The notes: a model not told the origin generated them from the letters alone. DNA of 64,000 nt from Spirochaetia bacterium (GCA_963662795.1 OY759746.1:832001-896000); one strand, 5' to 3'. Positions 853 to 41,034 are shown, numbered from the stretch's first letter. Numbers and translations are program-made.

Positions 853-1557
853 ATGCTGCGATATATTAATAATATAACCACACGAACAGATTATAGCACA
901 ATTTTTTCAGCTCTTGGCTATAAAAGAAAATCAACAGAACTTCCGGATTCATTCAAAAAAGAGATTAAAGGGTGGATAGATGAAGCTTCTCAGGCAGTTA
1001 AGCTTGACGCTGTTACAGCCAGGTGTGAAATATCGTTTCCTGATGATAAGTCAGTTCTTGTTTCGCATGAGGGCAACCCTCCTTTAGGATATAATCCTTT
1101 AGGATATAATCCTTTAGGATATAATCCTTTAGGAAATAATCCTGAAGGGAAACAGCCTGAAACCATACGGATTGAAAGCGCTTCGCTGCGCAAATTCCTT
1201 TCCTCTTCTTCCAAAGCGCTGATTATGGGGATAACGGCCGGCAGCGCCGTCACTGAACTGATAGATAAATACCAGAGAGAAAACATGACTAAAGCTGTAG
1301 TCCTTGACGCCGCGGCAGGAGAGATTGTCGATACAGGTCTTGATTATATTGTTTCACTTTTAAACAGGGAGCTTTTAAGGGAATCGGGCAGGCTCCTGTC
1401 AAAAAGATTTTCACCCGGGTATGGCGACCTGACGCTGAATGCGCAGGGAGAATTTTTCAGGCTGCTTGATATGGAAAAACTTGAGGTAAGCCTTACAGAA
1501 AGCTTTATTCTAAATCCGCGGAAATCAGTGATTGCAATAACGGGGATTGTTTATTAA
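853..1557 (+). CDS. Stand-alone B12-dependent methionine synthase reactivation (AdoMet-binding) domain protein
   Basis: RFSPGYGDL and LNPRKSVIAITG motifs; lies directly upstream of a MetH that lacks this domain. ATG 853 preferred over the TTG at 838. Confidence 0.88.
   Translation: MLRYINNITTRTDYSTIFSALGYKRKSTELPDSFKKEIKGWIDEASQAVKLDAVTARCEISFPDDKSVLVSHEGNPPLGYNPLGYNPLGYNPLGNNPEGKQPETIRIESASLRKFLSSSSKALIMGITAGSAVTELIDKYQRENMTKAVVLDAAAGEIVDTGLDYIVSLLNRELLRESGRLLSKRFSPGYGDLTLNAQGEFFRLLDMEKLEVSLTESFILNPRKSVIAITGIVY
1081..1140. repeat. 15-bp in-frame tandem repeat (CCTTTAGGATATAAT)x4
   Basis: Three exact copies plus one with a single mismatch, encoding PLGYN-PLGYN-PLGYN-PLGNN. Confidence 0.95.
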
Positions 1558-1578
1558 CATCTCTCTTAAGGATAAAAC

Positions 1579-4011: not shown

Positions 4012-4014
4012 TTT

Positions 4015-5718
4015 TTAAACTTCCCCTCCACTCTGGGGATCTTCATTCTTTTCAAACATCTTAAGGTTCTGGTACAGATACCTTTTTATTTTTTTTGTAG
4101 GGGTTTTTTCAAACGGGTTTTTCTGCTCAAGCATTAATCCGATTTTTGAAAAATTATTAAGCTGGGCGTTGACGCTTTTTTTAATTTCCGCCAGATGATG
4201 AGAAAAGTAGTCCTGAAGCTGTCTTCCGCTTTCTGCTGCATCTTCCTTCAAGTCCTCGAATTTGTTTTTCAGATCTTCATAGTTAAGCTGAACAAGCGCA
4301 ACAAGCATTCCCTTGTCCTCAACAACAACAGAATCCTCCACAAATGCGCAGCTGTTGATTACGCTTTCAATAGATTCAGGATAGATATTCTCACCGCTCG
4401 GCCCCAGAATCATGTTTTTAATTCTTCCCTTGATATAAAGATAGCCGTCTTCTCCGAAAGAACCGAGATCCCCTGTTCTGAACCATCCATCTTCAGTAAA
4501 CACTTCACTGGTCAGTTTTTCGTCCCTGTAATAGCCTTTCATTACATTCGGCCCCTTTACAAGTATTTCTCCGGAATCCCCTTCTCCGGCAGATTTATCC
4601 AGTTTTACCTCAACACCGGCAAGCAGTCGGCCTGTGGATCTGTACCGGGTACAGACTGCGTTATCACCGGCGATCAGAGGAGATGTTTCTGTTAATCCGT
4701 AGCCTATTGCATAGGGGAAATGAGCTTCCCTGAGGAATTTCTCAACATCAGGGGCAAGAGGTGCTCCTCCCACACCGAAAAAGTATATCCTTCCGCCGAA
4801 CAACTTTTTAAGCTTTATTCCCGCAATCCGGTTAAGTATCCGCCTGAAGAAAGGAATTGCGTAGAGTTTTGCAGTAATTTTTTTTTCAGTGAATGTCTTG
4901 TATATCTTCTGTCTGTAGATTTTTTCAATTAAAAGAGGAACAGAGAGCATTACGCCCGGTTTTATCTTCTTAAGCGCGGGAAGAAGAACATTAGGGACAG
5001 GCGGTCTTCCGAGGTAATAAATAGCCGCTCCTACAGAAAACGGAACAAGCATGCCGATTGTACACTCGTAGGAATGGGAAAGGGGAAGAATTGAGACAAA
5101 TCTTTCCTGTTCAAACATTTCAGGAATTGCGCTTGAAGTTATTGCGTTGGACAGGATGTTTTTATGCGTAAGCATCACACCTTTGGAGTTACCTGTAGTC
5201 CCTGATGTATATATGATTGATGCAACATCATCCTCGTTATGTTCAACATCCTTAAGGTTTATCGTATGGCCGGAAACTACCGGCTGCGGAAATTCAAGCG
5301 TTTCCATCATAACAGAAGTAAGCCCTTCGCTGCATAATTTTGAAACTTTCGGGTAAAGCTTTTCAGAAACAAATATAAGAGCGCACCCGGCATGTTTTAT
5401 GATATTTTCAATTTCTGTATCTTTAAAATCAGGCAGAACAGGGACAGCAGCGGCTCCTGACAGGGCAATTGCAAAATAGGAAACAACCCAGTTGGGCATG
5501 TTTTCTCCGAGGATTGCAACTTTACTCCCTTTACCCATACCGGCCGCCAGAAGGTTTTCTGCTGTTCTTTCAGTCATTTTTTCAACTTCACTGTAAGTCA
5601 AAGGCTCTGAATCAATTAATGCAAGGGCCGCCTGGTCTCCATATCTTTTTGAAGCGCTTCTCAGAAACGCTTCCAGTGTCATCCTGTCGAGTTTCATTAT
5701 TTGTGCTTTTTTTGCCAC
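4015..5718 (-). CDS. Long-chain fatty acid--CoA ligase (AMP-binding family)
   Basis: YTSGTTGNSKG, GYGLTETSP, WFRTGDLG and GRIKNMILGPSGENIYPE motifs. Confidence 0.92.
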   Translation of the reverse strand: MAKKAQIMKLDRMTLEAFLRSASKRYGDQAALALIDSEPLTYSEVEKMTERTAENLLAAGMGKGSKVAILGENMPNWVVSYFAIALSGAAAVPVLPDFKDTEIENIIKHAGCALIFVSEKLYPKVSKLCSEGLTSVMMETLEFPQPVVSGHTINLKDVEHNEDDVASIIYTSGTTGNSKGVMLTHKNILSNAITSSAIPEMFEQERFVSILPLSHSYECTIGMLVPFSVGAAIYYLGRPPVPNVLLPALKKIKPGVMLSVPLLIEKIYRQKIYKTFTEKKITAKLYAIPFFRRILNRIAGIKLKKLFGGRIYFFGVGGAPLAPDVEKFLREAHFPYAIGYGLTETSPLIAGDNAVCTRYRSTGRLLAGVEVKLDKSAGEGDSGEILVKGPNVMKGYYRDEKLTSEVFTEDGWFRTGDLGSFGEDGYLYIKGRIKNMILGPSGENIYPESIESVINSCAFVEDSVVVEDKGMLVALVQLNYEDLKNKFEDLKEDAAESGRQLQDYFSHHLAEIKKSVNAQLNNFSKIGLMLEQKNPFEKTPTKKIKRYLYQNLKMFEKNEDPQSGGEV

Positions 5719-26725: not shown

Positions 26726-27829
26726 TCAGTCAATTGGTCTTATGTTATCAGGATCATTAATAACATTTTCGTAGAGAGATCTGTATTTATCGCCAAAGGT
26801 TTTAAGAGTATGCCTCTGCAGGATGTATTCCCTTCCCTTCGCCCCCATGTCCCAGAGCTTCGGAATCTCGGCCTTTTTAAGCATCTCATAAAGCTCTTTA
26901 TATTTGCCGGATGTAAACAGAAGACCGGTTTCCCCTTCCTGGATAGCTTCCATGTTGCCTCCGCACCTGGATGCAATTACAGCAGTTCCGCTTGAAAGCG
27001 ATTCTATCGGGATATAGGAAAATGCCTCATCCCACCTGGTTGGAAGAACTGTGACATCAGATTTTGCGTAAAACTCACCCACTTTAGCCGGACTGTCAAG
27101 AAAACCGGCCCAGTTTATCACAGGGTTGCCCTTTGTCCTTTTCATCAGTATGGGTTTAAGTGTTCCGTTTCCGACAATGTTTAGTCTGATTTTTCTCTCT
27201 TCACTCAGTCTGAGGACAACGTTTATAAGTTTATCAATCCCTTTTTCCGGCGTTATCTGCCCTACAAATGTTACCTCAAGTGTATCGTGAGGCTCATAGG
27301 GAACAGGCTTGAAAACCTCAGGATTAACCCCGGCATAAAGAAGGACTATTTTCCCCTTCGGAACACCTCCGATCTCCTCAAGCTGGGCTTTTACAAATTT
27401 GCTTATTGCAACATAACATTTTGCGTCTGTAAAATTTCGTCTGGATGCCAGAAAAAATGCATTCATCCATTTATCAATCATATATTTTCGTGATCCTACA
27501 GACATGTGAAATGTACAGATCAGCGGCGCTTTCAGGGAGGTGCGGAATCTTGAAATGTTAAAATCAAGCCGACCTGAAGGGTGATGATGATGAAGTATAT
27601 CCGGGCTGAATTCAAGCAGCTTTTCTTCTACTTCGGTAACACTCCTTGCCCAGGGTATTATTCCGCCTATAAGATATGATTTCGGCTCATATACCGGGAT
27701 TCTCTGCTTGGTCCATTTTGCTTCACTTACTATTAAAGTTTCATCGCCGGTTTTGTCAAAAGAGTTATATAAATTCAAGGCGTAAGAAGCAATACCTCTT
27801 ACGCCGCTGTGAATATGCGCAATTTTCAT
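26726..27829 (-). CDS. Glycosyltransferase family 4
   Basis: FVGQITPEKG, EAFSYIPIE (EX7E) and GT-B fold pattern. Confidence 0.9.
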   Translation of the reverse strand: MKIAHIHSGVRGIASYALNLYNSFDKTGDETLIVSEAKWTKQRIPVYEPKSYLIGGIIPWARSVTEVEEKLLEFSPDILHHHHPSGRLDFNISRFRTSLKAPLICTFHMSVGSRKYMIDKWMNAFFLASRRNFTDAKCYVAISKFVKAQLEEIGGVPKGKIVLLYAGVNPEVFKPVPYEPHDTLEVTFVGQITPEKGIDKLINVVLRLSEERKIRLNIVGNGTLKPILMKRTKGNPVINWAGFLDSPAKVGEFYAKSDVTVLPTRWDEAFSYIPIESLSSGTAVIASRCGGNMEAIQEGETGLLFTSGKYKELYEMLKKAEIPKLWDMGAKGREYILQRHTLKTFGDKYRSLYENVINDPDNIRPID

Positions 27830-27854
27830 GCCTTAAATTATCAGAAAAAGCAGT

Positions 27855-28928
27855 TCACGTCAACAAATAGTGAACAATCTCGTTGTGAAGTTCGAGGTCA
27901 ATTATTGATCCCGGATCATACATCCTCATCCTGTCGGGATGGGTTTCGCTGAATGTCAGGGGCTGTCCTCCTGCCTCAATTTCATACTCAATCGCGTTCC
28001 CGAGATAAAGAGAGCGTTTCACTTTGGCTTTCAGAGTTCCTGTACCATTCACGGCAATCGACAAAAGCTCCGGCCGCAAAACCAGTGTTACTTTTTTCCC
28101 CGCGTCAAGTTTATCTTTGGTGTTTATTTCAACACTGCTGCCGAGGCAGTCTACTGTTGCCCGCCCCCCGCTGCTTTTTGATACTTTTCCCTCAACAAAA
28201 TTCGCCCGGCCGATAAAGTTGGCGACAAACCTTGAATTGGGGTAGCGGTAAATTTCCTGCGGCGGACCGATCTGCTCTATGACACCCTTATTCATTACAA
28301 CTACCTGATCAGACAAAGTCATCGCCTCAATCTGATCATGAGTAACATATATACTTGTGATTCCGAGAGTCTGCTGTATTCTTCTGATCTCTGTTCTCAT
28401 CTGCTCCCTGAGCTTTGCGTCAAGGTTGGAAAGAGGCTCATCAAGAAGAAGAACTTTAGGTTCAAGAACAAGCGCCCTTGCAAGTGCGACACGCTGCTGC
28501 TGGCCGCCTGAAAGCTGGTTAGGAGCTCTTGTCGCAAATCCTGTCAGGTCTACAAGCTCAAGGACCTTACCTACTCTTCTTTCAATTTCACTTTTGGATG
28601 CTTTCTGGACATTAAGACCGTACGCAATATTTTCAAACACATTAAGGTGCGGAAATATTGCGTAACTCTGAAATACCATCGACATCCCCCTCATATGGGT
28701 AGGAAGTTCTGTAATATCAGTTCCGTCAAGTATTATTTTTCCCGCTGACGGGACTTCAAATCCGCCGATAAGACGGAGTGTGGTTGTTTTTCCGCAGCCG
28801 GAAGGGCCGAGCAAAGTTACAAGCTCGCCCTTTTTTATATTCAGTGTTACATCATTAACCGCAGTAACCTCTGAGACTCCCCCCCGGGGTGGAAATACTT
28901 TCATTACATTTTCAAGGTTAAGATACAT
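27855..28928 (-). CDS. ABC transporter ATP-binding protein (FbpC/AfuC/PotA-like, TOBE domain)
   Basis: GPSGCGKT, LSGGQQQR, LLLDEPLSNLD and VTHDQ. Confidence 0.93.
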   Translation of the reverse strand: MYLNLENVMKVFPPRGGVSEVTAVNDVTLNIKKGELVTLLGPSGCGKTTTLRLIGGFEVPSAGKIILDGTDITELPTHMRGMSMVFQSYAIFPHLNVFENIAYGLNVQKASKSEIERRVGKVLELVDLTGFATRAPNQLSGGQQQRVALARALVLEPKVLLLDEPLSNLDAKLREQMRTEIRRIQQTLGITSIYVTHDQIEAMTLSDQVVVMNKGVIEQIGPPQEIYRYPNSRFVANFIGRANFVEGKVSKSSGGRATVDCLGSSVEINTKDKLDAGKKVTLVLRPELLSIAVNGTGTLKAKVKRSLYLGNAIEYEIEAGGQPLTFSETHPDRMRMYDPGSIIDLELHNEIVHYLLT

Positions 28929-28938
28929 TATTTACCTC

Positions 28939-31212
28939 CTATGCGCCCCAGGTGATATCTATACCACCACGCCGCCTGATCATTTTTCCTGTTATAAAAT
29001 AAAGAATACTTATTGCGATAAGTACAAAGAAAATTATTAGAGTTGAGTATGCCGCGGCCATGCTTATTCCCCCCTGCTCCCACTCGCTTAAAATAGATGC
29101 TGTTACTATTCTCCACTTGGGACTGACGAGAAACAGGATCGCGGAAAGGCTGGTCATATGTCTTGTAAAACTGAAAATCATCCCCGCGACCATGGCAGGC
29201 ATAATAAGAGGGAGAGTTACCTTGCGGAATGTATACCTTGCGTCCGCACCCATTATGGAAGAAGCTTCTTCCATGGAAGGGTCAATCTGCTGCAAAGAAG
29301 CTATACCCGATCTTACAGAAGCAGGAAGGCTTCTTACTGCGAATGCTGCAAGAATAATATAAGGGGAACCGACAAGTGCAAGCGGTTTGCCCGCAAAAAT
29401 AAGCGCGACTGAGCAGCCTGTCATTACAGCAAGGTTAACGCTGACCCCTTTACCCCTAGATCTTTTTTCAACCGCTATCATAACAGCCATAATCATTAAG
29501 ATACATCCCAGAATCGGGTGAGGCAGCTGGAAGAACAGTTTTATGTAATCCGGAAGCTGGGTCATGGCATTCTTAAATACCCCTGACGGTATGGTTTTAT
29601 TCATGTCTACGATCGGATAAATTACATATTCGATAAGACCGTAAGTTGAAAGGTACAGGCCCATAAACACATACCTTAATCCGGCTTTTCTGTTTTTCCG
29701 GACAAGTTCGGCAATCCCTGAAAGCAGCACTATGGCGGCTACTACATAAACCATCAGCAGTGTTACACTCATAAGTTCAAGATAATGAAGAGCATATGCT
29801 ATCAGAATACCGGCAGCCCCGGTTATGAGCCGCTTCTTTGTGTCAGAAAGCGATACACCCAGAGCAAACAGCAGCATGACTACGAAAAGAAGGTATACCA
29901 GCAGCCTTGGAGAGGTACTGAACGCAAGGACAAAGCCTATACCGAGAATTGTTCCCGGTACTGCACCGCCGAGATTTGAAGTAAAATCAACAACTTCCTT
30001 TCCCATGAACTTTTTACGTACAACAAGAAATGCGACAACCATTCCGAGAAGGACCGCAATAGGAGTCGCTATAATACTCAGGAAGGTCGTATCAAGGATT
30101 GATTCAATTCCGCGGGCGAACATCTGTTTCCACCACTCAAGGCTGAATGAATAATCAAGCCCCCATGCCTTGCTGAAAGAACCGTAAATAATCGCTATAT
30201 AGAGTATCAGAATCAGGATACAGACAATATATGTTGTAACTATAAAAGGCCACCTGATCCACCCTTCCTTTTCCTCCATTATTCCGCCGGTCGGTTTTCC
30301 TGTTACAGATACATATGACCTTCTTGAAACATAATATCTCTGTACCAGAAAAATTATCAGTGTAGGGATAAGAAGGACAACAGATAATGCTGATGCCTTC
30401 TGGTAATCATATTCACCTGCTATGGCAAGGAATATCTGGGCTGAGAGGACAGTAGTATTGCCCGATATAAACAGAGGGTTTCCAAGGTCTGCAAGCGATT
30501 CAACAAAAAGGAGAAGAAACGCCCCTGCGATTCCCGGGATAAGCAGCGGTATGGTTACTGTCCTGAAAATATGTATTTTCCCTGCTCCCATGCTCCGTGC
30601 GGCCTCTTCCATGGAAGGATCAAGCCGTTCAAGCATTGCCCGCATGATAAGATACGCGACAGAAAAGAATGTAATAATCTGGACAAAAACAAGACCGTCC
30701 ATTCCATAAAGATCGTTTGATCCCTGGGGAAACTGCATACCAAGCAGGCCCCTTGAGATAAGCCCGTTTCTCCCGAACAGAAGGATGGAACTCAGCGCCA
30801 ACGCAAAAGGGGGCGATACAGTAGGGACAAGAGCAAGGATATGGACAAACTTTTTCCCCGGTACACGGCATCTGACAATAGTATAGGCAAATATAAATCC
30901 GAGAAGTGTTCCTCCGGAAGCAGTCAGAAGGCCCATTCGGAGAGTATCGGCAAAGATTCTTCTTGCAGTAGGTCCGTAATAAGAGTCAAAATATCTGTAA
31001 AAAAATTGCAGATTAAAATTACCCTGAGTATCGACAAAACCGTTAATGGCGGTCTTCATTATCGGATAAACAATAAATGCTATAAGAAAAAGCGAGCTTA
31101 AAAGCAGACTGAGAGCCAGGATATGATCCCGGAAAATCAGACTGAATTCCTGTATTCTCTGCTTAAGAGGGGAAACCCTTCTCATCCGGTTCTGCTGAAC
31201 ATCTGATGACAT
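28939..31212 (-). CDS. Fe3+/sugar-phosphate-type ABC transporter permease (AfuB/FbpB-like, two BPD_transp_1 modules, extra TM insertion)
   Basis: Two EAA loops (MEEAARSMGA, MEEASSIMGA) and ADLGNP. ATG 31212 has a GGAGG SD. Confidence 0.88.
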   Translation of the reverse strand: MSSDVQQNRMRRVSPLKQRIQEFSLIFRDHILALSLLLSSLFLIAFIVYPIMKTAINGFVDTQGNFNLQFFYRYFDSYYGPTARRIFADTLRMGLLTASGGTLLGFIFAYTIVRCRVPGKKFVHILALVPTVSPPFALALSSILLFGRNGLISRGLLGMQFPQGSNDLYGMDGLVFVQIITFFSVAYLIMRAMLERLDPSMEEAARSMGAGKIHIFRTVTIPLLIPGIAGAFLLLFVESLADLGNPLFISGNTTVLSAQIFLAIAGEYDYQKASALSVVLLIPTLIIFLVQRYYVSRRSYVSVTGKPTGGIMEEKEGWIRWPFIVTTYIVCILILILYIAIIYGSFSKAWGLDYSFSLEWWKQMFARGIESILDTTFLSIIATPIAVLLGMVVAFLVVRKKFMGKEVVDFTSNLGGAVPGTILGIGFVLAFSTSPRLLVYLLFVVMLLFALGVSLSDTKKRLITGAAGILIAYALHYLELMSVTLLMVYVVAAIVLLSGIAELVRKNRKAGLRYVFMGLYLSTYGLIEYVIYPIVDMNKTIPSGVFKNAMTQLPDYIKLFFQLPHPILGCILMIMAVMIAVEKRSRGKGVSVNLAVMTGCSVALIFAGKPLALVGSPYIILAAFAVRSLPASVRSGIASLQQIDPSMEEASSIMGADARYTFRKVTLPLIMPAMVAGMIFSFTRHMTSLSAILFLVSPKWRIVTASILSEWEQGGISMAAAYSTLIIFFVLIAISILYFITGKMIRRRGGIDITWGA

Positions 31213-31250
31213 AAAATCCTCCATGTACATATAATAAAACTCATGGCAGT

Positions 31251-31310
31251 AAAAAAAGCCTGTTCACCGGAGCACTTGATAATTGAGTGTTATCCGCATG
31301 AACAGGCCTT
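31251..31310 (-). terminator. Long stem-loop with U-tract between the binding-protein and permease genes
   Basis: GCCTGTTCA...TGAACAGGC outer stem with inner pairing, followed by T7 on the minus strand. Typical stoichiometry-setting element of ABC operons. Confidence 0.7.
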
Positions 31311-31324
31311 TCATTCAGCAGCTA

Positions 31325-32371
31325 CTATTTTTTAAGGTTATCAGCACCTGCAAGTTCGTTGGAAAATTTATCTATAAATTCTTTTTTATGATCGCCTGCC
31401 CACTGAAAATCGTAGGGGATGAGTTTTACCTGAAGAAGTTCAGGATGTGAAAGTTCAACACCTTTTACAGTTGGAGCCTGGTATGCCTTGTATTTCGGCC
31501 CGAGAGACTGTGCTTCAGCTGTAAGGGCCCAGTCAAACCATTTTTTCGCATTGGCAATATTTTTGCCGTTTGCAAGAATGCCCATTCCGCCGATCTCGTA
31601 GCCTGTCCCTTCTTTCGGGAAAGTAAGTTCAAGAGGAAGTTTATTATCGTCAATTTCGTGTACAATATCATGTGAGAAAACTATACCGACAGCGGCTTCG
31701 CCCTGTCCTACAAATTTGGCAGGAGCTGCGCCTGACTTTGTAAACTGGTGGACCTGACCGGCATATTTGCGGAGGTATTCCCATCCTTTTTCCTCTCCCC
31801 GGATCTGGAGTACTGTCGCAAGCGCTGTATAGGATGTTCCTGAAGTTGAAGGATGGGCAACAAGGATCTGTCCTTTCAGTTTCGGATCAAGAAGATCATC
31901 CCATGATGTAGGAGCTTTTGCTCCCGGGTTAGCTGCAAGCCAGTTTTTGTTTGTACAGAAAGCAAGTGATCCTACATAGATTCCTACATAATAATCGTCT
32001 TTGTCTTTATACTTTTTGCTGTCAAGAAGATTTTTGTAGCTGGGTGATTTGTATGCGGCAAGAAGGCCTTCATTCTTTGCAGCGACAAAGCTGTCCATGG
32101 GACCGCCCCACCATATATCAAACTGCGGATTGTCTTTTTCCGCCCTGATTCTGGCAAGAGATTCGCCGCTTGACATTCTTACATAGTTGACTGTAATGCC
32201 GTATTTTTTTTCAAATTCCTGCTTCATTCCCTGACACCATTCTTCCTGCGGTGTCGCAAGTACGTTAAGCTCTGTTGTTTCCGCTTCAGCTTCTGTCTTG
32301 CCCATGGCAAAAATGCCGGGTGCAAGGAAAGAAATAATGATTAAAACAAATAACACTTTTTTCATATTCAA
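31325..32371 (-). CDS. ABC transporter substrate-binding protein (AfuA-like, SBP_bac_6)
   Basis: RMSSGE, DIWWGGP, HPSTSGTSY, FTKSGAAP and EGTGYEIGG. Confidence 0.9.
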   Translation of the reverse strand: MNMKKVLFVLIIISFLAPGIFAMGKTEAEAETTELNVLATPQEEWCQGMKQEFEKKYGITVNYVRMSSGESLARIRAEKDNPQFDIWWGGPMDSFVAAKNEGLLAAYKSPSYKNLLDSKKYKDKDDYYVGIYVGSLAFCTNKNWLAANPGAKAPTSWDDLLDPKLKGQILVAHPSTSGTSYTALATVLQIRGEEKGWEYLRKYAGQVHQFTKSGAAPAKFVGQGEAAVGIVFSHDIVHEIDDNKLPLELTFPKEGTGYEIGGMGILANGKNIANAKKWFDWALTAEAQSLGPKYKAYQAPTVKGVELSHPELLQVKLIPYDFQWAGDHKKEFIDKFSNELAGADNLKK

Positions 32372-32478
32372 ATTCCTCCTTTAGAAATCCAAAACTGATT
32401 ATAACACCTAGGTATCATTTAAGCAAATTATTTGAAGCAATTTGCCATTGTGCATATCAGAATGCTCTTCCGAGGGTT

Positions 32479-33798
32479 TTACAACGGCTGTTTTCCCAGA
32501 ATCTTGAGAATATACTCTCCGATTGACCGGGATGTAAGACGGACTGCCTTTACAGCAGCCTCATCCGCAATTATCTTCAATTCAGATTCTTTTTTAAGGC
32601 GGATATCCCCAATCATTTTTTCGATACTTTCAAGCATATCCAAGATCTTTTCAGGATCACCTGAAAGGGATTGCTTACCTGTCCCGACGGGCGCTCCTGT
32701 AAATTCTCCCATAAAATTTTCACCGAACCCCTCAGGCAAACCATATCCTGACGGGGAAACGCTCTCATTTTTTTCAAGTTTTTCAGCAGTTTCAGCTGAT
32801 TTTAGAAGCAGTTCAGTAATCTCATCGCCACGGTCATGCTCATCATAGCCTTCCCCGTTAACCCTTCTGGCCTCTTCCCTTAAAAGCATATAGTCTTCCG
32901 CGTCAAACGAATCATTTATAAGCTGCACAATCCTCATGTCTTTGGCAAAGATATACCCGATATAAAATATTATCAGAACAAGAATGGAAATAAGGGTCAA
33001 AACAAGAACAAGCATTATTTTGTCATGCTGTCTCATAATATCTGCTCCGTCTGCGAGCACACCCTCAACCGGAAGGGATGACCCGCCGGCAGAAGCAGTC
33101 TGCTTAGTCAGATTAACCTCTATATACCAGCCGGTGCTTTCCAGTTTTTCCCTGTAACCGGCGTAATCAGTACTTTCTTTTCCGTCCCTGCCGAACAGTA
33201 CAGAGTTATCTGTATAATAAATTATTCTCGGGTCTCTTTCAGCCGTCATTCTCACCCTGTTTCTGGATAAATCATATACAGTTTCGTAATAAGCGGTTCT
33301 GTTGGTAATCAGATAATCCGTAAGCATTATGTCGACAACAGCAAGTCCCGAGACAAAAACAAGAACTATTGTTACCCCTATCTTCATCACCCTTTCCTGA
33401 ATAAAGACGGAATCGCCTTTCATCTTCTTCAGAAAGCTGAAAATACGCAAGAATCTGAGCACCCGGATTATCTTGAAAAACCTGCCTATCCGCATAACCT
33501 TGAAAAGCCCGAAATACTGGCCGAACTGCATGAAAGCGGCAAGCCCCGGTATACATGCGAGAAAATCCACCCATCCATAAGCTTTGAAAAAATATTTCTT
33601 TGATGGAAATGAAATAAGGCGCAGGGTAAAATCCAGCAGGAAAAGAAGATCAATGATCTTGTTGATTTCAGTGATGTACTCCTTAAAGGCTGTATATTCA
33701 AGGACAAGTCCTGCTATAGAGGCAATAACGATGTAGGGATTGAAAAAATCTATCAGGAAAACAAGTTTTTCAAATCTCCTGTCGGGTTTTAAATTCAT
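32479..33798 (-). CDS. Ion_trans-type voltage-sensor domain protein without a pore, fused to a TM-periplasmic-TM-HAMP-like module
   Basis: S2 LFLLDFTLR, S3 GWVDFLACIP and S4 KVMRIGRFFKIIRVLRFLR. No GYG or P-loop; two further TMs flank a ~100-aa loop. Confidence 0.75.
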   Translation of the reverse strand: MNLKPDRRFEKLVFLIDFFNPYIVIASIAGLVLEYTAFKEYITEINKIIDLLFLLDFTLRLISFPSKKYFFKAYGWVDFLACIPGLAAFMQFGQYFGLFKVMRIGRFFKIIRVLRFLRIFSFLKKMKGDSVFIQERVMKIGVTIVLVFVSGLAVVDIMLTDYLITNRTAYYETVYDLSRNRVRMTAERDPRIIYYTDNSVLFGRDGKESTDYAGYREKLESTGWYIEVNLTKQTASAGGSSLPVEGVLADGADIMRQHDKIMLVLVLTLISILVLIIFYIGYIFAKDMRIVQLINDSFDAEDYMLLREEARRVNGEGYDEHDRGDEITELLLKSAETAEKLEKNESVSPSGYGLPEGFGENFMGEFTGAPVGTGKQSLSGDPEKILDMLESIEKMIGDIRLKKESELKIIADEAAVKAVRLTSRSIGEYILKILGKQPL

Positions 33799-33813
33799 TG
33801 TTTTCTCCTGTCT

Positions 33814-35049
33814 TCAGAAATTATAGCGTGTCATAAACATGTCGGAAGGTTGTATAATATTTTTATTTTTTGTCAGATATTTTTTCATACTTGAAATTAT
33901 TTCCCGTGATTCAGCCTTGAAATGTGTTATTTTACCTGACGCGATATTAAAAGCGTTATTGACCAGCATATTAATACGCTCGTCTGAATCATAAAGTTTT
34001 CGGAGTTTTTCCCGCTGATTTTCCTTGATTGAAAAATACCTTCCTGATATCTCCATCACCTGCATTATCAGGATATAGGTAAAAACCGAGATAAACAGTA
34101 TGGCGCAATAAAATACCGGATGAATTCTTCCCAGGTTATCGTTTGCAAAGTTTTTAAGGCTTACAGAAAGATGCATACTTTCCAGAGTCTCAGGTTTTGC
34201 GGAATTGAGCAGCTGATAGAGTACAAAATATGAAAGGATTTCCTCATAATCACCGCCCCATCTGGATGCAATAATCTTAAGATATTCCTTAATGAAAATT
34301 GAATACCTGTCAATTTCATATCCGCACATAAGACAGTAAACTCTCGGGTTGTAAATACTCTTTGAAATTTTGCTGCCGAAAGCTTCAATCAGAAACTCTT
34401 TTTCAGGGATCTTCCTCTCATTTACCATCGCAAGTTTTTCAACCGACAGAAAACTATGTTCAATTATTTCCATTATTTTTTCAGCGTATCTGAACGGGCC
34501 CTGACCGACAATTGTGACATCGGATGAGACTATTACCTCATCAGGGTCAAGCCCTGCCGAAACCGGCCTGTCTGCGAGCCTGGAAAGGGCATCAAACCGG
34601 AGAAGGCTGTAATAAATAAATACCTCCTGATCTGTAAGCCCGATAGCCTCTGTCCTCAGTTCCTCAAGCAGTTTCTTTTCAATCTGCGGATTCATCCGCG
34701 TAAAATCCGCATTTTCAATTTTTTTATGGAATATTGATTTATTAATAAGGATTTTCTCTTCAGGAAAATAAAATTTAAGGCTTTCCCCGTCTTCAGCGCT
34801 TCCTGCGCCCCTGGTAAGGATAAGCGGGGCGGATATGTCCCTTACCGTAACTTTATTTTGAGAAGAGTTCTGCTGCAGCGCATCCTCTCCCATTTTTTTC
34901 CATTCTTTCAATATATCCGCTATTGAATCGTTTGAGAGGCCGGGGATAAGCTTCAGGAGCCCGGCAACAGCCTGCAGCGGGATTATTGATTCCGAATTAA
35001 AGAATTTAAAAAGATAAGATGCGATTGCTGCTGCATGATTTTCTGCCAT
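33814..35049 (-). CDS. Hypothetical protein (411 aa)
   Basis: Long ORF with SD, 15-20 bp from both neighbours, with no recognisable motif. Confidence 0.8.
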   Translation of the reverse strand: MAENHAAAIASYLFKFFNSESIIPLQAVAGLLKLIPGLSNDSIADILKEWKKMGEDALQQNSSQNKVTVRDISAPLILTRGAGSAEDGESLKFYFPEEKILINKSIFHKKIENADFTRMNPQIEKKLLEELRTEAIGLTDQEVFIYYSLLRFDALSRLADRPVSAGLDPDEVIVSSDVTIVGQGPFRYAEKIMEIIEHSFLSVEKLAMVNERKIPEKEFLIEAFGSKISKSIYNPRVYCLMCGYEIDRYSIFIKEYLKIIASRWGGDYEEILSYFVLYQLLNSAKPETLESMHLSVSLKNFANDNLGRIHPVFYCAILFISVFTYILIMQVMEISGRYFSIKENQREKLRKLYDSDERINMLVNNAFNIASGKITHFKAESREIISSMKKYLTKNKNIIQPSDMFMTRYNF

Positions 35050-35069
35050 AACATAACCTGTCCTTTAAA

Positions 35070-36401
35070 TTATTTACTTGATTTAATTTCCATATTCCTT
35101 TTCTCAGCCATATCTTTTATCTTTTCCGCAAAAACCGGATAACGTTCAAGTACCCTGTCGAAAATATCCTTATTGAGCCTGTAAAGGTCGCAGTATTCCC
35201 TGGTTTTTATTGTCGCTGTCCGGGGGGTGCTCAAAAGCAGTGCAATTTCTCCGAAAAAATGTCCTGCGGACAGTGTCGCGTAAACAATTTTTTCATCCTC
35301 TGAAACAACATCAACAGTTCCGCGGCTTATAAAAAACATGTCGTATCCTATTTCCCCTTTTTTAACCACATAATCATCAGGAGTATAAACAACAGGCTCA
35401 AGATTAAGAATTATATCACGGATAAGGGCATCTCCGGCACCCCGGAAAAGAGGAACCTTTTCTATCATCTCCTTGTTCAGAAAAATGGAAACATTGGTTT
35501 TAAGTGAAACCGGCAGCTCATGAAGAACAGATGTTTCATCATACCCCCGTCTTGTTTCCCAGATATAATTATAGTAGTCATTTACCTTTTTCTGTAAATC
35601 TGAAGGAAGATTCCTGTACTGCATGAAGGTATTTATCTTTTCAATTTTTTCCCTCTGCTGGGCCCGTGCTATATCAAGATTGGCGATAAGGTTTGCAATA
35701 TTACCGATAATAAAACCGTAAAGTCCTGCTCCGATAATCTCAACACATATTGTATACAGCATCTGGATAGTTTCCTTTGGAGTAATATCGCCATACCCTA
35801 TTGTTGTCAGTGTCGTTATAGTCCAGTAAAAAGCCATAATATACTGTTTTACGTTACTGATATCCGCAAGGTCCCCCTCAATGTAAATCCATCCGCAGGC
35901 GACAAGATGGGCTGTGACAAGTATCCAGAAAACAAGCAAGACCATTCTCACTATATTTGGATTAAGAAGAATTGAGGTCCTTGCCCTCCTCAAGGTCTGA
36001 ACTGCCCTGAAAAGTTTAAGAAGCCTTGCAAGTCTTAATAAATTAAGGGTCTGAAGCGTTACTGCGAATCCTGATCCCCCGAGGATAAACCAGAATGGAA
36101 TAGTAGCAGCAAGATCTATCCAGAACCACCCCCGAAGATATATCTTTAAAACTTCCATTCTGCTTGTAATCAGTTTTCTTTTTACGATAACAGCAGTATT
36201 AAAGCGGATAAGAATATCGATTAAAAATATAAAGGTAAGAATAAGTTCTGTAATATCAGCGGAATGCTCAGCGCTTCCGTTAAAAAAAACAACATAGACA
36301 GGTATATTTATTATTGTCCAGATTATTACAAAGAGAACAAATATTTCCCATGCAAATCTGATTCTATTGTCAGGCCTGACCATTTTAATTCCTGTAAGCA
36401 T
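35070..36401 (-). CDS. Cyclic nucleotide-gated potassium channel (SthK-like)
   Basis: S1-S4, pore YWTITTLTTIGYGDITP, C-linker and CNBD FFGEIALL...PRTATI. Confidence 0.93.
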   Translation of the reverse strand: MLTGIKMVRPDNRIRFAWEIFVLFVIIWTIINIPVYVVFFNGSAEHSADITELILTFIFLIDILIRFNTAVIVKRKLITSRMEVLKIYLRGWFWIDLAATIPFWFILGGSGFAVTLQTLNLLRLARLLKLFRAVQTLRRARTSILLNPNIVRMVLLVFWILVTAHLVACGWIYIEGDLADISNVKQYIMAFYWTITTLTTIGYGDITPKETIQMLYTICVEIIGAGLYGFIIGNIANLIANLDIARAQQREKIEKINTFMQYRNLPSDLQKKVNDYYNYIWETRRGYDETSVLHELPVSLKTNVSIFLNKEMIEKVPLFRGAGDALIRDIILNLEPVVYTPDDYVVKKGEIGYDMFFISRGTVDVVSEDEKIVYATLSAGHFFGEIALLLSTPRTATIKTREYCDLYRLNKDIFDRVLERYPVFAEKIKDMAEKRNMEIKSSK

Positions 36402-36525
36402 ATATATTTATATCCAGTAAAAAGTATTTTGCTTCTATTATCGATATACATGGCTTTAAAAATTAGGACGTATTTGCGTTATAATGCATTTCCTGCCGGC
36501 AGCCGGGGATGTAAAATACGGCAGA

Positions 36526-39500
36526 TCAGGCAATCTTATCGGGATTTTCAATCTCCCTGGCGTTGATAATAAGCATCTGAAGTCTGTTTTCGACATTTCC
36601 GATACTTGTATCCGGGTCATAGTCAAGCGCTATAATCTGGGATCCGGGACAAAGTTTTTTTAATGTCTTGATCATACCCCTGCCTGTTATATGATTGGGA
36701 AGGCATCCGAAAGGCTGCATTATTACAAATGAGTTTACGCCGGAGGCAAACATCTCCATAATCTCTCCAGGGAGTTTCCACCCTTCAGCGCCGATATATG
36801 TCACATCCATAAAAGGCTTAATATTGTCGACCAGGTTATAGATATTACCCCGGTGTTCATGAAACCGGAATTCCCTTTTTATAACACCCCAGATTTTTGT
36901 ATGAACAAAATCGTATATCCTGTCTGTGATGTCGTGAACCAGGTAATGGAAAAATGAATTGGGCGCCATTTTCCGTCTGCCGAGCTCTTTTTCTATTATC
37001 GCGGTTTTCCTGAAAAAATCGTGCATCGCCGGCTGAACAACTTCCATACCGTTAAGCTCAAGGTAGGACTCAATGTAGCAGTTTGCGGCAGGATGGTAGT
37101 TGACAAGTATTTCACCGACTATACCTACTCTGGGCTTTCTTTTGTCTGCAAATATTTCGATTCTGTTAAAATCCATTACAGCATCCCGTAAAAGACCAAG
37201 AAGCACATTTCTGCCCCTGTGGATATTTTCGCCGAGTCTTTTAATGTGCCGGTTGAATATAATGTCTGTGAGCCCCTTGTTTGTTTCGTACGGCCTTATC
37301 CTCCTGAGCATCATTTCATAGGTATCGACAATAGTCAGTCCCCAAAGCATTCTTGTCTGATCCTTTAAGGTCATTTTAAATCCCGGGTGAATCCCTTTAG
37401 TATCCTTTCCGGTTGTCACAATGGGAACTTCAGGATAGCCTGCCTCATCAAGCGCTTTCCTCGCGAGAGCCGCGTATTGGCCGGCCCTGCATGCTTCGCA
37501 GTTTTTGGCAACACCAAGGGCAAACCTTGTTTTTGCGCCCTCTGCCTTTTCAAGATAAGCCAGTGCCTCTCCTATATTTATCTGGGCGGGATAGCATATA
37601 TCGTTGTGAACATATTTTTTCCCCAGCTCTATTGCCCTTTTGTCCGCGACAGGCAGCGGCTTGATGCTGATTCCGTTTTTTCGCATAACGGAAGAAAAAA
37701 TAAGGGAAAATGCCGGGGAGAGATTCGGAGCAAGAACTATCTTTTCCTTTCTGTCCTTCTTTGTGTATATAACCTTTTTTTCACATATAAACGGGACGGC
37801 TTTCACGGAAGCGCCATCAGCATTTTCCTTCTTTCTCCTCGCCCTTATTGTCTCTATAAAAGACTTGATCCTGATGTTAAGCGGGCCGGCAGATTCACCT
37901 TCATCAAGCTTCAGGATCAGCATCTCCTTACTGCTCCGTTTCTTAAGTTCCCTGGCCATTTCATCTGAAATAATCGCGTCATGACCGCATCCGAAACTTA
38001 CAATCTGGACTATCTCAAGGTTGGGATGAAGAGCCGCTTCTATCGCAGCCCCGTCCATTCTGGTATGAAAGGTAATTGTAGTTTCCATCCTGACATCGGA
38101 AAGATCATGCTTATCAAGACCGGGGAGGGAATCGAGCGTAAGAACCGGAATGCCCAGTGATGTAAAATAGCGGGAAATGCTGTGATTAACAAGCAGATCT
38201 GAATGGTATGGCCTTCCCGCAAGCAGTACCGCGAAATTACTGCTTCCTTCAAGACCTGAAAGAACACGCGAGCCTTCTTCCCTCATTTTTGCCTTGAATA
38301 ATGCCATCGCACAGTTACCCTGCTCAATCGCATTTTTTACGGCACCCCCTTTAAGGGAAAACTCACTGGAAAACCAGGAGGTAATCTGCCTGTTCTTGAG
38401 TTTTTCATTATACCAGTGAAAAATCGGGGTATCAATTTTAATACCGGTTCTCGTAAAAAGATCGCTGCTTTTTTCAACAACCATCGGATACCCCTGAAGC
38501 ATAACGCAAGTGTGGTTTCCCTCAGCCGTGTTGTTTTCCCTCGGCAGCCGCACCATCATGGGAAGAAATATCCTGTCAACGCCTTTCGAAGCAAGCTCCT
38601 CTACATGCCCGTGAACAAGCTTTGCGGGAAAACAGGCGGTATCTGAAGGAATATACTGAAGTCCTTTCTCATAAATGTCATAGCTCGAAGGGGAGGAGAC
38701 AACTACATCAAACCCGAGGGCGGTAAAAAGCGTTCTCCAGAACGGAAGGCTGTTCCAGAATTCGAGTGTTCTCGGAATGCCGATCCTCAGCGGTCTTAAT
38801 GCATTACCCGGATCAGAAATATTTACAAGGGTACGTGATTTTCCCCTTCCTGCAGATCTGCCGCGGTAATTACTTTTTAAAAGTTCCTGTGAAAATACCC
38901 TTTTTACCGGATACTCTTTCATTAAAAGGGTGTTGTGAAGCTTAACCATGTCGGGTACGGAATCAAGCCTCTCGCGGGTATCTTTAAGTCTTTTTTTAAT
39001 GTCCGGGCTTTCCTGATTTCCGACTATCTCCCCTTTCTCGCATCTGTTTCCTGTAATGTGGTTATTGCCGTTGGTAAAAGATATTATGGTTCTGCTGCAG
39101 TGATTCGCGCAGAAACTGCAGATCATGGACGGCTGTTTAATATAATCAAGATCCTTGAGGGCCTCAAATCCCGCGAAACGGCTTAAAGGGACAGCCTGGC
39201 CGGCGGAGACGGCTTTTTCCTCCATCTGTTTCTTCACAAGGAGCGCAATTCCGAAGGCCCCCATTTCGCCCGGATACGGGGCCCTTACGACATTTCTGCC
39301 TGTATACTGTTCAAAAGCCCTTAAAACCGCGTCATTTCTGAAAGTTCCGCCCTGTACAACTATTTTTTCTCCCAGATCATTGAAGTTGGATATCCTCACT
39401 ACTTTTGTAAAGACATTTTCAATTATCGATCTGCTTATCCCGGCCAGGATATCTTCTGTTTTCTTGCCGTTTTTCTGTTCAGTGATTATTGAGCTGTTCA

Positions 39501-41034
39501 TGAAAACCGTGCATCTTGATCCAAGGTGTGACGGATTTTCCGAGAGGAAGGCAAGTTCCGCAATCCTTTCAACAGCAACACCGAGCGACTTGGCGTAGGT
39601 TTCGACAAAAGAGCCGCACCCGGCCGAGCACGCTTCGTTAAGGACAATGCCTGTAACAATCCCCTTTTTCAGGCTGATGGCTTTCATATCCTGACCGCCG
39701 ATATCAAGGATAAAAGTTACATCAGGAACAAAAAACTGAGCCGCTTCTGCATGGGCAACTGTCTCGACAGTGTGATAATCAGCAAGAAAGCCTCTTGCGA
39801 AAAGCATCTCCCCGTAACCGGTTGTTCCAAGTCCTAAAACATTAAGGGTAATCCCCCTGCTTTGGTATTTTTCATAAAGTCTTAAAAGAGCATATTTAAT
39901 TACTTTAAGCGGTTCGCCGTGGTTACCGGAATAAAAACTGTCTACCAGGCGACATTCCTTATCAATAAGAACAAATTTGGATGTTGTAGAGCCTGCGTCA
40001 AGTCCGATATAAACATCAAGAGATGCGGTACCTTCAGGAATTTCATATAATTCCCTCCCCTTTTCACTGTTATGACGGGTGAAAAAAGCTTCTTTTTCCT
40101 CATCATTCTCAAAAAAAAGCAATCCCGGGCCGGAATGCTGCGTATCCCCGTTCACTCCTTTTGTGTTCAGTTTTGATACTATACCAGAAACAGGGAGGCC
40201 TTCCCCGGCAGAGGAGAACATAAAATCTATCGAAAGCGCTGCCCCGTAGGCGACAAGAATTTCAGGTTTTTCAGGTATAACAACATCATCCTCACCAAGT
40301 GAAAGCCTTTCCTTGAAAACACTTACAAGTCTCCTGTTAAAGGTCAGCGGGCCGCCGACAAAAATGACTTTCGGCTTTATCTCCATACCCTGGGCAAGGC
40401 CGCCTATGGTCTGCTTGACTATTGCGTGAAAAGTGGAAAGGGCGATATCTTCTACTGAAACTCCGTGATTCAGAAGGGGCTGTATATCTGTTTTGGCAAA
40501 TACACCGCACCTTCCTGAAATGTCATAAACTGTTTTTCCTTTTTCGGAAAGTGCTGCAAATTCCTCTGTCCTGATTGACACCAGTTCAGCCACCTGGTCT
40601 ATAAATGCACCTGTCCCCCCTGCACAGCTTCCGTTCATCCTCATGTCGGAGGCTATAAGCTGATTTGTGTCCTCATCCATAGTAAAAAAAATAACCTTGG
40701 CATCCTGTCCGCCAAGTTCTATGGAAACCCGCACATCTTTATAGTATTTTCTTATCACAAGTGAATTGGCGACAACCTCCTGTATATAGAAAGCGTCAAG
40801 TTTTTTTGATATCGCCATCCCTCCGCTGCCGCATACCGCAATAACAAGTCTTGCATCCGGAAAGATGCGGCCGAAATCTTCAAGCATCAGGCTTAGTGTC
40901 CCGGAAAGGTCTGCATTATGCCTTCTGTAATCAGAGTAAATGAGATTATTTGTATTTGGATCTGCTATTGCGATTTTTACTGTAGTTGATCCGATATCTA
41001 TTCCGGCGTAAAGCTTATCGCTCTCTTTTTTCAT
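36526..41034 (-). CDS. Fused 2-hydroxyacyl-CoA dehydratase activase/reductase family protein (two BadF/BadG ATPase domains, DUF2229, HgdD-like); PlsA/Ger-like
   Basis: GIDIGSTT...MNGSCAGGTG...RCGVF, GLDAGSTT...NEACSAGCG...RCTVF, CFPAK, SFGCGHDA, DICYPA and QPFGCLPNH. Confidence 0.85.
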   Translation of the reverse strand: MKKESDKLYAGIDIGSTTVKIAIADPNTNNLIYSDYRRHNADLSGTLSLMLEDFGRIFPDARLVIAVCGSGGMAISKKLDAFYIQEVVANSLVIRKYYKDVRVSIELGGQDAKVIFFTMDEDTNQLIASDMRMNGSCAGGTGAFIDQVAELVSIRTEEFAALSEKGKTVYDISGRCGVFAKTDIQPLLNHGVSVEDIALSTFHAIVKQTIGGLAQGMEIKPKVIFVGGPLTFNRRLVSVFKERLSLGEDDVVIPEKPEILVAYGAALSIDFMFSSAGEGLPVSGIVSKLNTKGVNGDTQHSGPGLLFFENDEEKEAFFTRHNSEKGRELYEIPEGTASLDVYIGLDAGSTTSKFVLIDKECRLVDSFYSGNHGEPLKVIKYALLRLYEKYQSRGITLNVLGLGTTGYGEMLFARGFLADYHTVETVAHAEAAQFFVPDVTFILDIGGQDMKAISLKKGIVTGIVLNEACSAGCGSFVETYAKSLGVAVERIAELAFLSENPSHLGSRCTVFMNSSIITEQKNGKKTEDILAGISRSIIENVFTKVVRISNFNDLGEKIVVQGGTFRNDAVLRAFEQYTGRNVVRAPYPGEMGAFGIALLVKKQMEEKAVSAGQAVPLSRFAGFEALKDLDYIKQPSMICSFCANHCSRTIISFTNGNNHITGNRCEKGEIVGNQESPDIKKRLKDTRERLDSVPDMVKLHNTLLMKEYPVKRVFSQELLKSNYRGRSAGRGKSRTLVNISDPGNALRPLRIGIPRTLEFWNSLPFWRTLFTALGFDVVVSSPSSYDIYEKGLQYIPSDTACFPAKLVHGHVEELASKGVDRIFLPMMVRLPRENNTAEGNHTCVMLQGYPMVVEKSSDLFTRTGIKIDTPIFHWYNEKLKNRQITSWFSSEFSLKGGAVKNAIEQGNCAMALFKAKMREEGSRVLSGLEGSSNFAVLLAGRPYHSDLLVNHSISRYFTSLGIPVLTLDSLPGLDKHDLSDVRMETTITFHTRMDGAAIEAALHPNLEIVQIVSFGCGHDAIISDEMARELKKRSSKEMLILKLDEGESAGPLNIRIKSFIETIRARRKKENADGASVKAVPFICEKKVIYTKKDRKEKIVLAPNLSPAFSLIFSSVMRKNGISIKPLPVADKRAIELGKKYVHNDICYPAQINIGEALAYLEKAEGAKTRFALGVAKNCEACRAGQYAALARKALDEAGYPEVPIVTTGKDTKGIHPGFKMTLKDQTRMLWGLTIVDTYEMMLRRIRPYETNKGLTDIIFNRHIKRLGENIHRGRNVLLGLLRDAVMDFNRIEIFADKRKPRVGIVGEILVNYHPAANCYIESYLELNGMEVVQPAMHDFFRKTAIIEKELGRRKMAPNSFFHYLVHDITDRIYDFVHTKIWGVIKREFRFHEHRGNIYNLVDNIKPFMDVTYIGAEGWKLPGEIMEMFASGVNSFVIMQPFGCLPNHITGRGMIKTLKKLCPGSQIIALDYDPDTSIGNVENRLQMLIINAREIENPDKIA

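Follow-up and report, generated by a model that had tools for sequence, protein, structure and literature searches.

A pore-less voltage-sensor-domain protein and its co-inherited partner form a conserved gene pair in Spirochaetota that adjoins a predicted SthK-type channel in one family

We analyzed a window of 64,000 nucleotides of one strand from the genome of a Spirochaetia bacterium (GCA_963662795.1, OY759746.1:832001-896000), meaning by "the window" this whole stretch at its full length. Its minus strand carries three consecutive open reading frames (ORFs) of 443, 411 and 439 amino acids (ORF listing), here called gene 1, gene 2 and gene 3 in their 5' to 3' order. Gene 1 encodes a predicted cyclic-nucleotide-gated K+ channel of the SthK type, gene 2 a protein modeled as all-helical, and gene 3 a protein that has a voltage-sensor domain and no pore domain. 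We found that the conserved unit is genes 2 and 3 rather than all three genes: the channel lies outside the conserved module, and its linkage to the other two genes is specific to one lineage, a single family. The reading that we favor, and to which we give somewhat better than even chances, is that genes 2 and 3 form an autonomous spirochaete voltage-sensing pair whose wiring to the channel is lineage-specific.

A preliminary description of this locus, made from the sequence alone, had called three co-directional genes with 20- and 15-bp gaps, encoding an SthK-like channel, a protein without known relatives and a pore-less voltage-sensor receptor; these gene calls were borne out exactly, and the three labels proved right on the evidence given below for each protein. 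The gap between genes 1 and 2 measures 20 nt (35050-35069) and that between genes 2 and 3 measures 15 nt (33799-33813). The flanking gaps are wider, with 124 nt (36402-36525) to an upstream ORF of 1502 amino acids and 107 nt (32372-32478) to a downstream solute-binding-protein ORF, and both flanking genes are co-directional with the three-gene set. Read from the sequence, AAGGA precedes the start codon of gene 2 and AGGAG that of gene 3. Because each of the three genes has open-frame homologues in other genomes, we conclude that they are real genes and not chance ORFs. In a second strain, sequenced in another study, the entire 5.7-kb stretch lies on one DNA contig, with 73 substitutions and 0 indels.

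Gene 3 fuses a voltage-sensor domain to a module composed of a transmembrane (TM) helix, a periplasmic domain, a second TM helix and a cytoplasmic helix. The Pfam family Ion_trans matched the protein (1.4e-11) over model positions 11-134 of 241 only, which correspond to S1-S4; the match ends there, and no match to Ion_trans_2 was found, so that the pore domain is missing. In the AF2 model, residues 4-125 form a four-helix bundle. The best fold match of this bundle by VIA-align was the voltage-sensor domain of Ci-VSP (4g7v_S; Z 10.1, root-mean-square deviation [rmsd] 3.2 Å, 118 residues aligned), followed by the sensors of Nav, Cav and Kv channels; 32 chains reached a Z of at least 8, and among the matches listed nearly all are channel voltage sensors. 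A profile built from 23 homologues aligned with S2-S4 of Kv2.1 (E 1.7e-5). In this alignment F53 and D56 of S2 and D78 of S3, invariant in 23 of 23 sequences, fall on Kv2.1 residues that we take to be the gating-charge transfer center of Kv channels. The S4 helix carries a basic residue at every third position (K100, R103, R106, K109, R112, R115 and R118), all seven positions are R or K in each of the 23 aligned homologues, and no segment of the protein is more conserved than S4 (0.76). Among the 24 gene 3 proteins derived from the loci described below, 22 keep all seven S4 charges together with the charge-transfer center. These data show that gene 3 has true and complete voltage-sensor anatomy, with S1-S4, seven gating-charge positions and an intact charge-transfer center, and this anatomy suggests that the protein senses voltage.

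What stands in place of a pore is a different kind of structure. After S4, the AF2 model continues with a long TM5 helix (131-177), a helix-and-strand domain (182-250) and a TM6 that runs on into a cytoplasmic helix (252-299); the C-terminal part consists of a short helical hairpin, a low-complexity disordered linker and a long helix (382-435). The periplasmic alpha/beta domain, of roughly 90 amino acids, is located where the pore loop of a channel would be. It is the least conserved folded part of the protein (0.18), and TM5, TM6 and the juxtamembrane helix range from 0.49 to 0.58. Two homologues of about 330 amino acids (L047 1627-2616 and L059 5816-6817) have a short loop replacing the periplasmic domain and represent a natural minimal form of the sensor. 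The cytoplasmic motif that follows TM6, DMRIVQLINDSFDAEDYMLL in the window's protein, takes the form D-x5-L-I-x-D-S-x-D/E-A-x-D/E-x-x-L-L/I in all 24 locus-derived proteins, including two with a degenerate S4, and its residues D287, D296 and D302 do not vary among the 23 aligned sequences. These two proteins come from one genus, represented by genomes G631 (L066 7708-9384) and G613 (L067 7708-9321), in which 2-3 of the seven S4 positions are basic and D56 is lost; gene 2 is shortened there to a C-terminal domain of 239 amino acids, and the pair and the juxtamembrane motif persist.

A Foldseek search with the whole gene 3 model returned a WalK model first (9a5d_A, WalK-YycH; E 9.2e-4, probability 1.00) and Kv channels after it; the TM-score to 9a5d_A is just 0.20 over 267 columns. 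Pfam gave no HAMP, PAS or Cache match at E<=1, and no HisKA, HATPase_c, kinase, cyclase or other output domain. No fusion of gene 2 to gene 3, or of gene 3 to an output domain, was seen among proteins of 770-2195 amino acids, a result that the search tool itself rates as weak evidence. As modeled, the region after S4 is thus sensor-kinase-like, a predicted TM / periplasmic domain / TM / helical module without an enzymatic output.

Since voltage sensors can conduct alone, as in Hv1, we considered whether gene 3 might itself conduct, either by an Hv1-like proton or ion path through the sensor or by a new pore built from TM5 and TM6, with gene 2 as a regulatory subunit. An invariant acidic residue at the outer end of TM5 (D156) and a nearly invariant one in S1 (E34) would suit such a path. 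However, S4 of Hv1 has a three-arginine pattern, whereas the seven gating charges of gene 3 and its intact F53 hydrophobic plug are of the Kv/VSP type. TM5 and TM6 are almost purely hydrophobic, with neither a P-loop nor a filter, and the alpha/beta domain between them is absent in some members. We therefore regard conduction by gene 3 as very unlikely.

Gene 2 belongs to a family that, judged by database searches, appears to be undescribed and restricted to Spirochaetota. The protein has no Pfam or NCBIfam match, and 16 family members scanned singly gave no recurring Pfam match at E<=5. The best match of its profile among PDB sequences reached only 0.17, neither the whole protein nor residues 175-411 gave a usable match in the ESM Atlas, and the model had no Foldseek match at E<=0.001; among 1.84 billion representatives, the profile found only 58 clusters. 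In the AF2 model the protein is all-helical, and a disordered stretch separates a small bundle at the N terminus from a large C-terminal domain. Residues 93-110 are the most conserved segment (mean pairwise identity 0.76). The motif PEEKILIN, invariant in all 16 aligned sequences, is absent from the short forms of gene 2 found in L057, L058 and G631. These short forms consist of the C-terminal domain alone, with or without the first 55-60 residues, and because they retain only that domain we consider it the core of the family. A hydrophobic helix at residues 309-336, with basic residues on both sides and a Kyte-Doolittle peak of 2.26 (1.6-1.74 or less in distant members), might serve as a membrane anchor.

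Two candidate identities for gene 2 were tried and rejected. The first, a phosphodiesterase (PDE) or HD enzyme, was considered for the neighbor of a cAMP-gated channel: residues 180-406 aligned by VIA-align with about 12 PDE/HD catalytic domains (Z 5.3-6.3, rmsd 5.2-6.9 Å, roughly 167-190 residues aligned), values that lie below the tool's noise level for helical models. The family alignment of 16 sequences holds 46 invariant and 25 nearly invariant columns, none of them histidine. We excluded an HD-type enzyme because no histidine is conserved in the family, and the H...HD...D metal-binding residues are absent. Similarly, matches of residues 92-165 to homeodomain- and FF-like three-helix folds (Z 4.7-6.6) were treated as those of a generic small helical bundle.

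The two proteins occur together. We searched a class sample of 301 genomes and a phylum sample of 401. The gene 2 profile matched 9 of the 301 class genomes, and these are the same 9 that carry a full-length gene 3 (gene 3 matches at E<=5e-32; next best 2.4e-11). Across the phylum sample, gene 3 was present in 9 of 401 genomes (E<=1e-20), and gene 2 in the same 9 and, as a fragment at a contig edge, in one 80%-complete assembly; the pair therefore reaches other classes of the phylum. We then pooled the loci of the sampled genomes with 15 species-representative loci, all titled as Spirochaetota metagenome-assembled genomes (MAGs), and 4 metagenome loci, merging duplicates. This gave 28 distinct loci, 25 of which allow adjacency to be judged, and in 23 of the 25 gene 3 directly follows gene 2 on the same strand. 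Both exceptions, genomes G513 and G532 (L069 and L070, with L060 and L061), belong to one family (f105) of another class, in which the two genes are present and well conserved but on separate contigs; genes that co-occur without being linked speak, if anything, more strongly for a functional tie than syntenic genes do. In this family gene 3 follows a gene for an HflX-like GTPase, with a 4-nt overlap or a 24-nt gap.

Trees of the gene 2 and gene 3 proteins recovered the same well-supported clades; both followed lineage and gave no hint of recent transfer. (The L059 row of the gene 3 tree is a truncated 238-aa ORF pick whose position was disregarded, and L049 and L057, in each of which one gene is cut, were omitted.) Such matching trees are as expected from joint vertical inheritance, and show co-inheritance, not interaction. 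They also bear on the idea that the pair is an accessory cassette resembling a mobile element, for example an anti-phage or stress module that senses depolarization and is unrelated to normal signaling. The pair's patchy occurrence, in 9 of 301 and 9-10 of 401 genomes, and its presence or absence between congeners would fit this idea. However, the trees group by lineage, the neighbors of the pair are housekeeping or signaling genes rather than defense islands, and neither gene 2 nor gene 3 had a PADLOC match at E<=0.1; gene 1 did match, just through its cyclic-nucleotide-binding domain (CNBD), to Pycsar effector models. A mobile cassette seems to us exceedingly improbable.

The channel does not share this history. 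It flanks the pair in 4 of the 25 testable loci, all from one family. All 3 genomes of the sister genus have the 1502-aa gene, the channel, gene 2 and gene 3 in this order; outside the window's family the channel is gone from the locus, and genes 2 and 3 stay together. A channel was found (E<=1e-40) in 69 of the 301 class genomes, 63 of which lack the pair. Channel and pair occur together in 6 class genomes, and side by side only in the 4 genomes of the window's family; in two others (G207 and G216) the channel is on another contig, and three genomes with the pair lack a channel at E<=1e-10. In G207, a gene for a TPR-GAF-GGDEF diguanylate cyclase (L054 3738-5816) flanks the channel on the opposite strand. 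In 2 of the 3 sister-genus genomes the gap from channel to gene 2 measures about 146 nt, whereas that from gene 2 to gene 3 is still 12-14 nt.

A congeneric genome, G002, carries a channel 87% identical to gene 1 and lacks exactly genes 2 and 3. By blastn, positions 730-4453 of its contig correspond to window positions 35069-38784 and positions 1-634 to window positions 31809-32443, and nothing matches between; the stop codon of the channel stands about 175 nt from the start of the transporter gene. Searches of the rest of this 95%-complete assembly turned up neither gene 2 nor gene 3. Because the sister genus has the pair at the same place, loss of the pair in G002 is the simpler reading. The closest relative, G001 (L035, contig C24; channel 98% identical), is uninformative on the pair because its contig ends 7 nt after the channel stop codon; this end coincides with the start of the pair in the window and with the G002 deletion.

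The preliminary description had asked whether SthK orthologues keep these two neighbors, and this check gave a negative result. Genome G024 encodes a channel near-identical to the solved SthK sequence (E 5.6e-266 over 427 residues), whose neighbors are FeoB, an iron-dependent repressor, a DUF998-like protein and a DJ-1/PfpI protein, none of them a neighbor of the window's channel. Profile searches of that genome returned neither a match to gene 2 nor a full-length one to gene 3. Together, these results divide the earlier interpretation in two: its gene calls, its three annotations and its pairing of the 411-aa protein with the sensor hold, the last strongly supported by co-occurrence and adjacency, whereas a conserved three-part module of channel, gene 2 and sensor does not.

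Gene 1 itself matched Ion_trans (3.1e-26, residues 16-242), Ion_trans_2 (2.8e-12) and cNMP_binding (1.1e-17, residues 337-421) in Pfam. Its best phmmer matches in the PDB were SthK entries (1.2e-111, residues 16-441) and 5v4s (7.3e-99), presumably LliK, followed by HCN, CNG and KCNH channels. The CNBD aligns residue for residue with that of SthK, and the Glu and Arg of the phosphate-binding cassette, FGEIALLLSTPRTAT, are present. SthK of Spirochaeta thermophila (PDB 6cjq and others) is matched over its whole length, with the same TIGYGD filter, a C-linker and a CNBD with an FGE...PRTAT cassette; the two are orthologue-level relatives rather than the same protein, with roughly half of the alignment identical. 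By homology, then, gene 1 is predicted to be a genuine SthK-type K+ channel gated by cAMP or cGMP.

The strongest competitor to an autonomous pair is that, in the window's organism and the sister genus, the three genes are one operon and one circuit: cAMP opens the channel, the sensor detects the resulting shift in membrane potential, and gene 2 passes the signal on or acts back on the channel. Several observations suit this proposal. The gaps within the set (20 and 15 nt) are short next to those at its flanks (124 and 107 nt), and the order is kept in all three sister-genus genomes and in the second strain. The window organism's genome encodes 10 class III cyclase domains, which makes cAMP signaling plausible. 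The channel is present in 6 of the 9 pair-bearing class genomes versus 63 of the 292 others. Finally, a passage of a study of SthK (PMC9663499) states that the activity of this channel increases with depolarization, so that voltage matters to the channel type. Nevertheless, the same genomes also keep the upstream 1502-aa gene, and the order may therefore be plain synteny of relatives, and the 6-of-9 enrichment amounts to one family counted four times. The wide channel-to-gene-2 gap in two sister-genus genomes, the channel without the pair in G002, the three channel-free genomes that bear the pair, and the channels on other contigs in G207 and G216 also argue against a single circuit. We consider it a fair possibility, though clearly less likely than not.

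Other lineages place different genes upstream of the pair. In three loci of one lineage (L029, L030 and L042/L044, from G282, G145 and one MAG), genes for CheY, CheX and a MASE6-Hpt-HATPase_c kinase precede the pair, which begins with a 1-nt overlap or after a 24-nt gap and is followed by FliG. Besides its membrane MASE6 domain the kinase contains an Hpt domain, and no CheW-like domain was among its Pfam matches. In two metagenome loci, a 5TMR-LYT-PAS-HisKA_2-HATPase_c kinase gene overlaps the start of a short gene 2. Overall, a polytopic membrane signaling protein is encoded directly upstream in 9 of the 25 loci, from three lineages (the channel in 4, the MASE6 kinase in 3 and the 5TMR-LYT kinase in 2). 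The upstream gene of the other 16 is unrelated or on the opposite strand (MaoC, DM13, PfkB, WD40, MscS-like, HflX-like GTPase and others).

This arrangement raises the question of whether the pair is an accessory voltage-input subunit that docks in the membrane and confers voltage dependence on whichever transducer is encoded upstream, channel or kinase, in the way that YycH and YycI act on WalK. The 9 co-directional loci, with their tight or overlapping spacing, point in this direction, as do the missing output domain of gene 3 and the resemblance of its second half to the input module of WalK. However, the 9 loci represent only 3 lineages, and the upstream gene is unrelated or on the opposite strand in 16. 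A docking subunit is, in our judgment, improbable. We are at least as cautious about a broader form of the idea, on which the pair would be a portable spirochaete voltage-input module that makes membrane transducers, such as K+ channels and histidine kinases, respond to membrane potential; we put this forward as a speculation with little weight. On the basis of the cluster of CheY, CheX, kinase, pair and FliG, the pair could link membrane potential to chemotaxis or motor control in spirochaetes. Two old paper titles on Spirochaeta aurantia, in the reference list of PMC4841586, suggest a link between potential and chemotaxis in these bacteria.

How might an autonomous pair work? A change in membrane potential would move S4 of gene 3. 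The S4-TM5 linker and then the TM5/TM6 pair would transmit this movement to the juxtamembrane helix, which would in turn alter the state of bound gene 2. Gene 2 would bind the cytoplasmic or membrane face of gene 3 and carry the output. Conservation is concentrated in S4, the charge-transfer center, TM5/TM6 and the juxtamembrane helix, a pattern that speaks for a working sensor whose movement is relayed to the cytoplasmic face. Gene 2 is taken as the output or adaptor because gene 3 has no output domain and this partner is always present. In the window's family, the pair stands behind the channel, probably on one transcript, and may read, or feed back on, the K+-dependent potential. The binding of gene 2 to gene 3, the direction of signaling and any link to the channel are all proposed here from gene content, conservation and models, and should be read as such.

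Five observations weigh against this reading of the pair. First, the genus of G613 and G631 retains the pair despite its degenerate S4 and lost D56; therefore, something besides voltage sensing can maintain the pair. Second, genes 2 and 3 are unlinked in family f105. Third, adjacency among relatives is not independent, and the 25 loci stand for perhaps 10-12 lineages. Fourth, the 20-nt gap and the channel-pair order in two genera also fit a real functional tie to the channel. Fifth, gene 2 has no recognizable fold or catalytic motif by Foldseek, VIA-align, the Atlas, Pfam or the PDB, so that its output role is an argument by elimination.

Table 1. Features of the three-gene locus, in coordinates of the window.
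Feature	Coordinates	Strand	Basis
Gene 1, predicted SthK-type cyclic-nucleotide-gated K+ channel, 443 aa	35070..36401	-	Pfam and phmmer against PDB
K+ selectivity filter TIGYGD (aa 200-205) of gene 1	35787..35804	-	Pattern match in translation
Cyclic-nucleotide-binding domain of gene 1 (aa 337-421)	35139..35393	-	Pfam cNMP_binding; phosphate-binding cassette FGEIALLLSTPRTAT
Gene 2 ("unk"), 411-aa all-helical protein	33814..35049	-	AF2 mean pLDDT 81.4; homology
Motif PEEKILIN (aa 96-103) of gene 2	34741..34764	-	Invariant in 16/16 aligned sequences
C-terminal helical domain (aa 180-404) of gene 2	33838..34512	-	Kept in every family member; pLDDT mostly 85-96
Gene 3 ("vsd"), 439-aa six-TM protein	32479..33798	-	Pfam, AF2 mean pLDDT 78.6, Foldseek, VIA-align
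Voltage-sensor domain S1-S4 (aa 4-125) of gene 3	33424..33789	-	VIA-align; profile against Kv2.1
S4 helix (aa 98-127) of gene 3	33418..33507	-	Basic residues at 100, 103, 106, 109, 112, 115, 118
Periplasmic alpha/beta domain between TM5 and TM6 (aa 161-255) of gene 3	33034..33318	-	AF2: helices and six strands at aa 182-250
Juxtamembrane cytoplasmic motif DMRIVQLINDSFDAEDYMLL (aa 287-306) after TM6 of gene 3	32881..32940	-	Kept in 24/24 locus-derived proteins
Two-gene cassette (genes 2 and 3) without G002 counterpart	32444..35068	-	blastn
Possible promoter of downstream ABC-transporter operon	32398..32426	-	TTGCTT, 17 nt, TATAAT, TG upstream; read by eye

In scans for transcription signals, promoter-like sites numbered 23 versus 13.9 expected, none of them at an obvious place, and the only terminator-like site lies inside the channel gene. 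The same scans found nothing in the 146-nt gap between channel and gene 2 of genome G005, and Rfam gave no match at E<=0.1 within 31000-37500. The promoter-like element between gene 3 and the transporter genes (Table 1) was not among the scan sites because its first hexamer matches at just 3 of 6 positions; a similar element precedes the same transporter gene in G002. This putative promoter would make gene 3 the last gene of a three-gene unit. Upstream of the channel, 36526-41034 (minus strand) encodes the 1502-aa protein, which has two BcrAD_BadFG ATPase stretches and a DUF2229 "CoA enzyme activase" domain and is directly upstream of the channel in 6 of 6 genomes of the two genera examined. 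Directly downstream of the three genes lies a co-directional ABC-transporter cluster (26726-32371, minus strand) with an SBP_bac_6/8 solute-binding protein, a 763-aa double-length permease and two ORFs of about 360 amino acids; it appears to own an extended -10 promoter, the element just described.

A few eukaryotic proteins, namely VSP, Hv1, TMEM266 and SLC9C1, are known to couple a voltage sensor to something besides a pore. Ci-VSP and TPTE resemble gene 3 in having an S1-S4 sensor without a pore, coupled to an output other than conduction, and Ci-VSP is the best match to residues 4-122. Gene 3 differs from them in having no phosphatase or other enzymatic domain in cis, in its two extra TM helices, periplasmic domain and short helical tail, in a presumed effector that is a separate protein, and in being bacterial. 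With Hv1 and TMEM266 it shares a sensor without a pore domain; Hv1 has a C-terminal coiled coil, and the modeled C-terminal helix of gene 3 (382-435) could likewise dimerize. Unlike these proteins, gene 3 has seven S4 charges rather than three, together with TM5/TM6 and the periplasmic domain. The sperm Na+/H+ exchanger SLC9C1, whose sensor is among the fold matches (8pcz_A, Z 8.2), is a membrane protein other than a channel that is controlled by its own voltage sensor. SLC9C1 joins sensor, transporter and CNBD in a single protein, whereas the spirochaete locus has no transporter and carries its cyclic-nucleotide sensor on a separate, dispensable neighbor. Finally, residues 131-345 of gene 3 recall WalK with YycH/YycI in their order of TM helix, extracytoplasmic alpha-beta domain, TM helix and helical hairpin, and in having a separately encoded partner. 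In contrast to WalK, gene 3 has no DHp or ATPase domain and places a voltage sensor ahead of the module, and gene 2 is mainly cytoplasmic and unrelated to YycH/YycI. Gene 3 thus differs from the eukaryotic pore-less sensors in its sensor-kinase-like second half, its lack of a cis output and its dedicated trans partner.

To our knowledge, the study of bacterial membrane-potential signaling is an active field that has so far rested on channels. Excerpts of a voltage-sensor review (PMC13661669) cite prokaryotes solely as channels. In the literature that we searched, which included few subscription journals, we found no account of such a bacterial pore-less voltage-sensor protein or of SthK partners. 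New here are the obligatory partner, gene 2, and the position of the SthK-type channel outside the conserved unit.

The pair is a compact bacterial case in which a sensor of textbook quality comes with an always co-inherited partner that has no recognizable fold. Natural variants already dissect it, among them forms without the periplasmic domain, with a degenerate S4, with a truncated partner or with unlinked genes, and the pair offers a tractable system for asking how bacteria convert voltage into a biochemical signal. For the biology of SthK, these results correct the idea that channels of this type generally carry a sensor module, and they provide a concrete, lineage-restricted candidate for a physiological neighbor.

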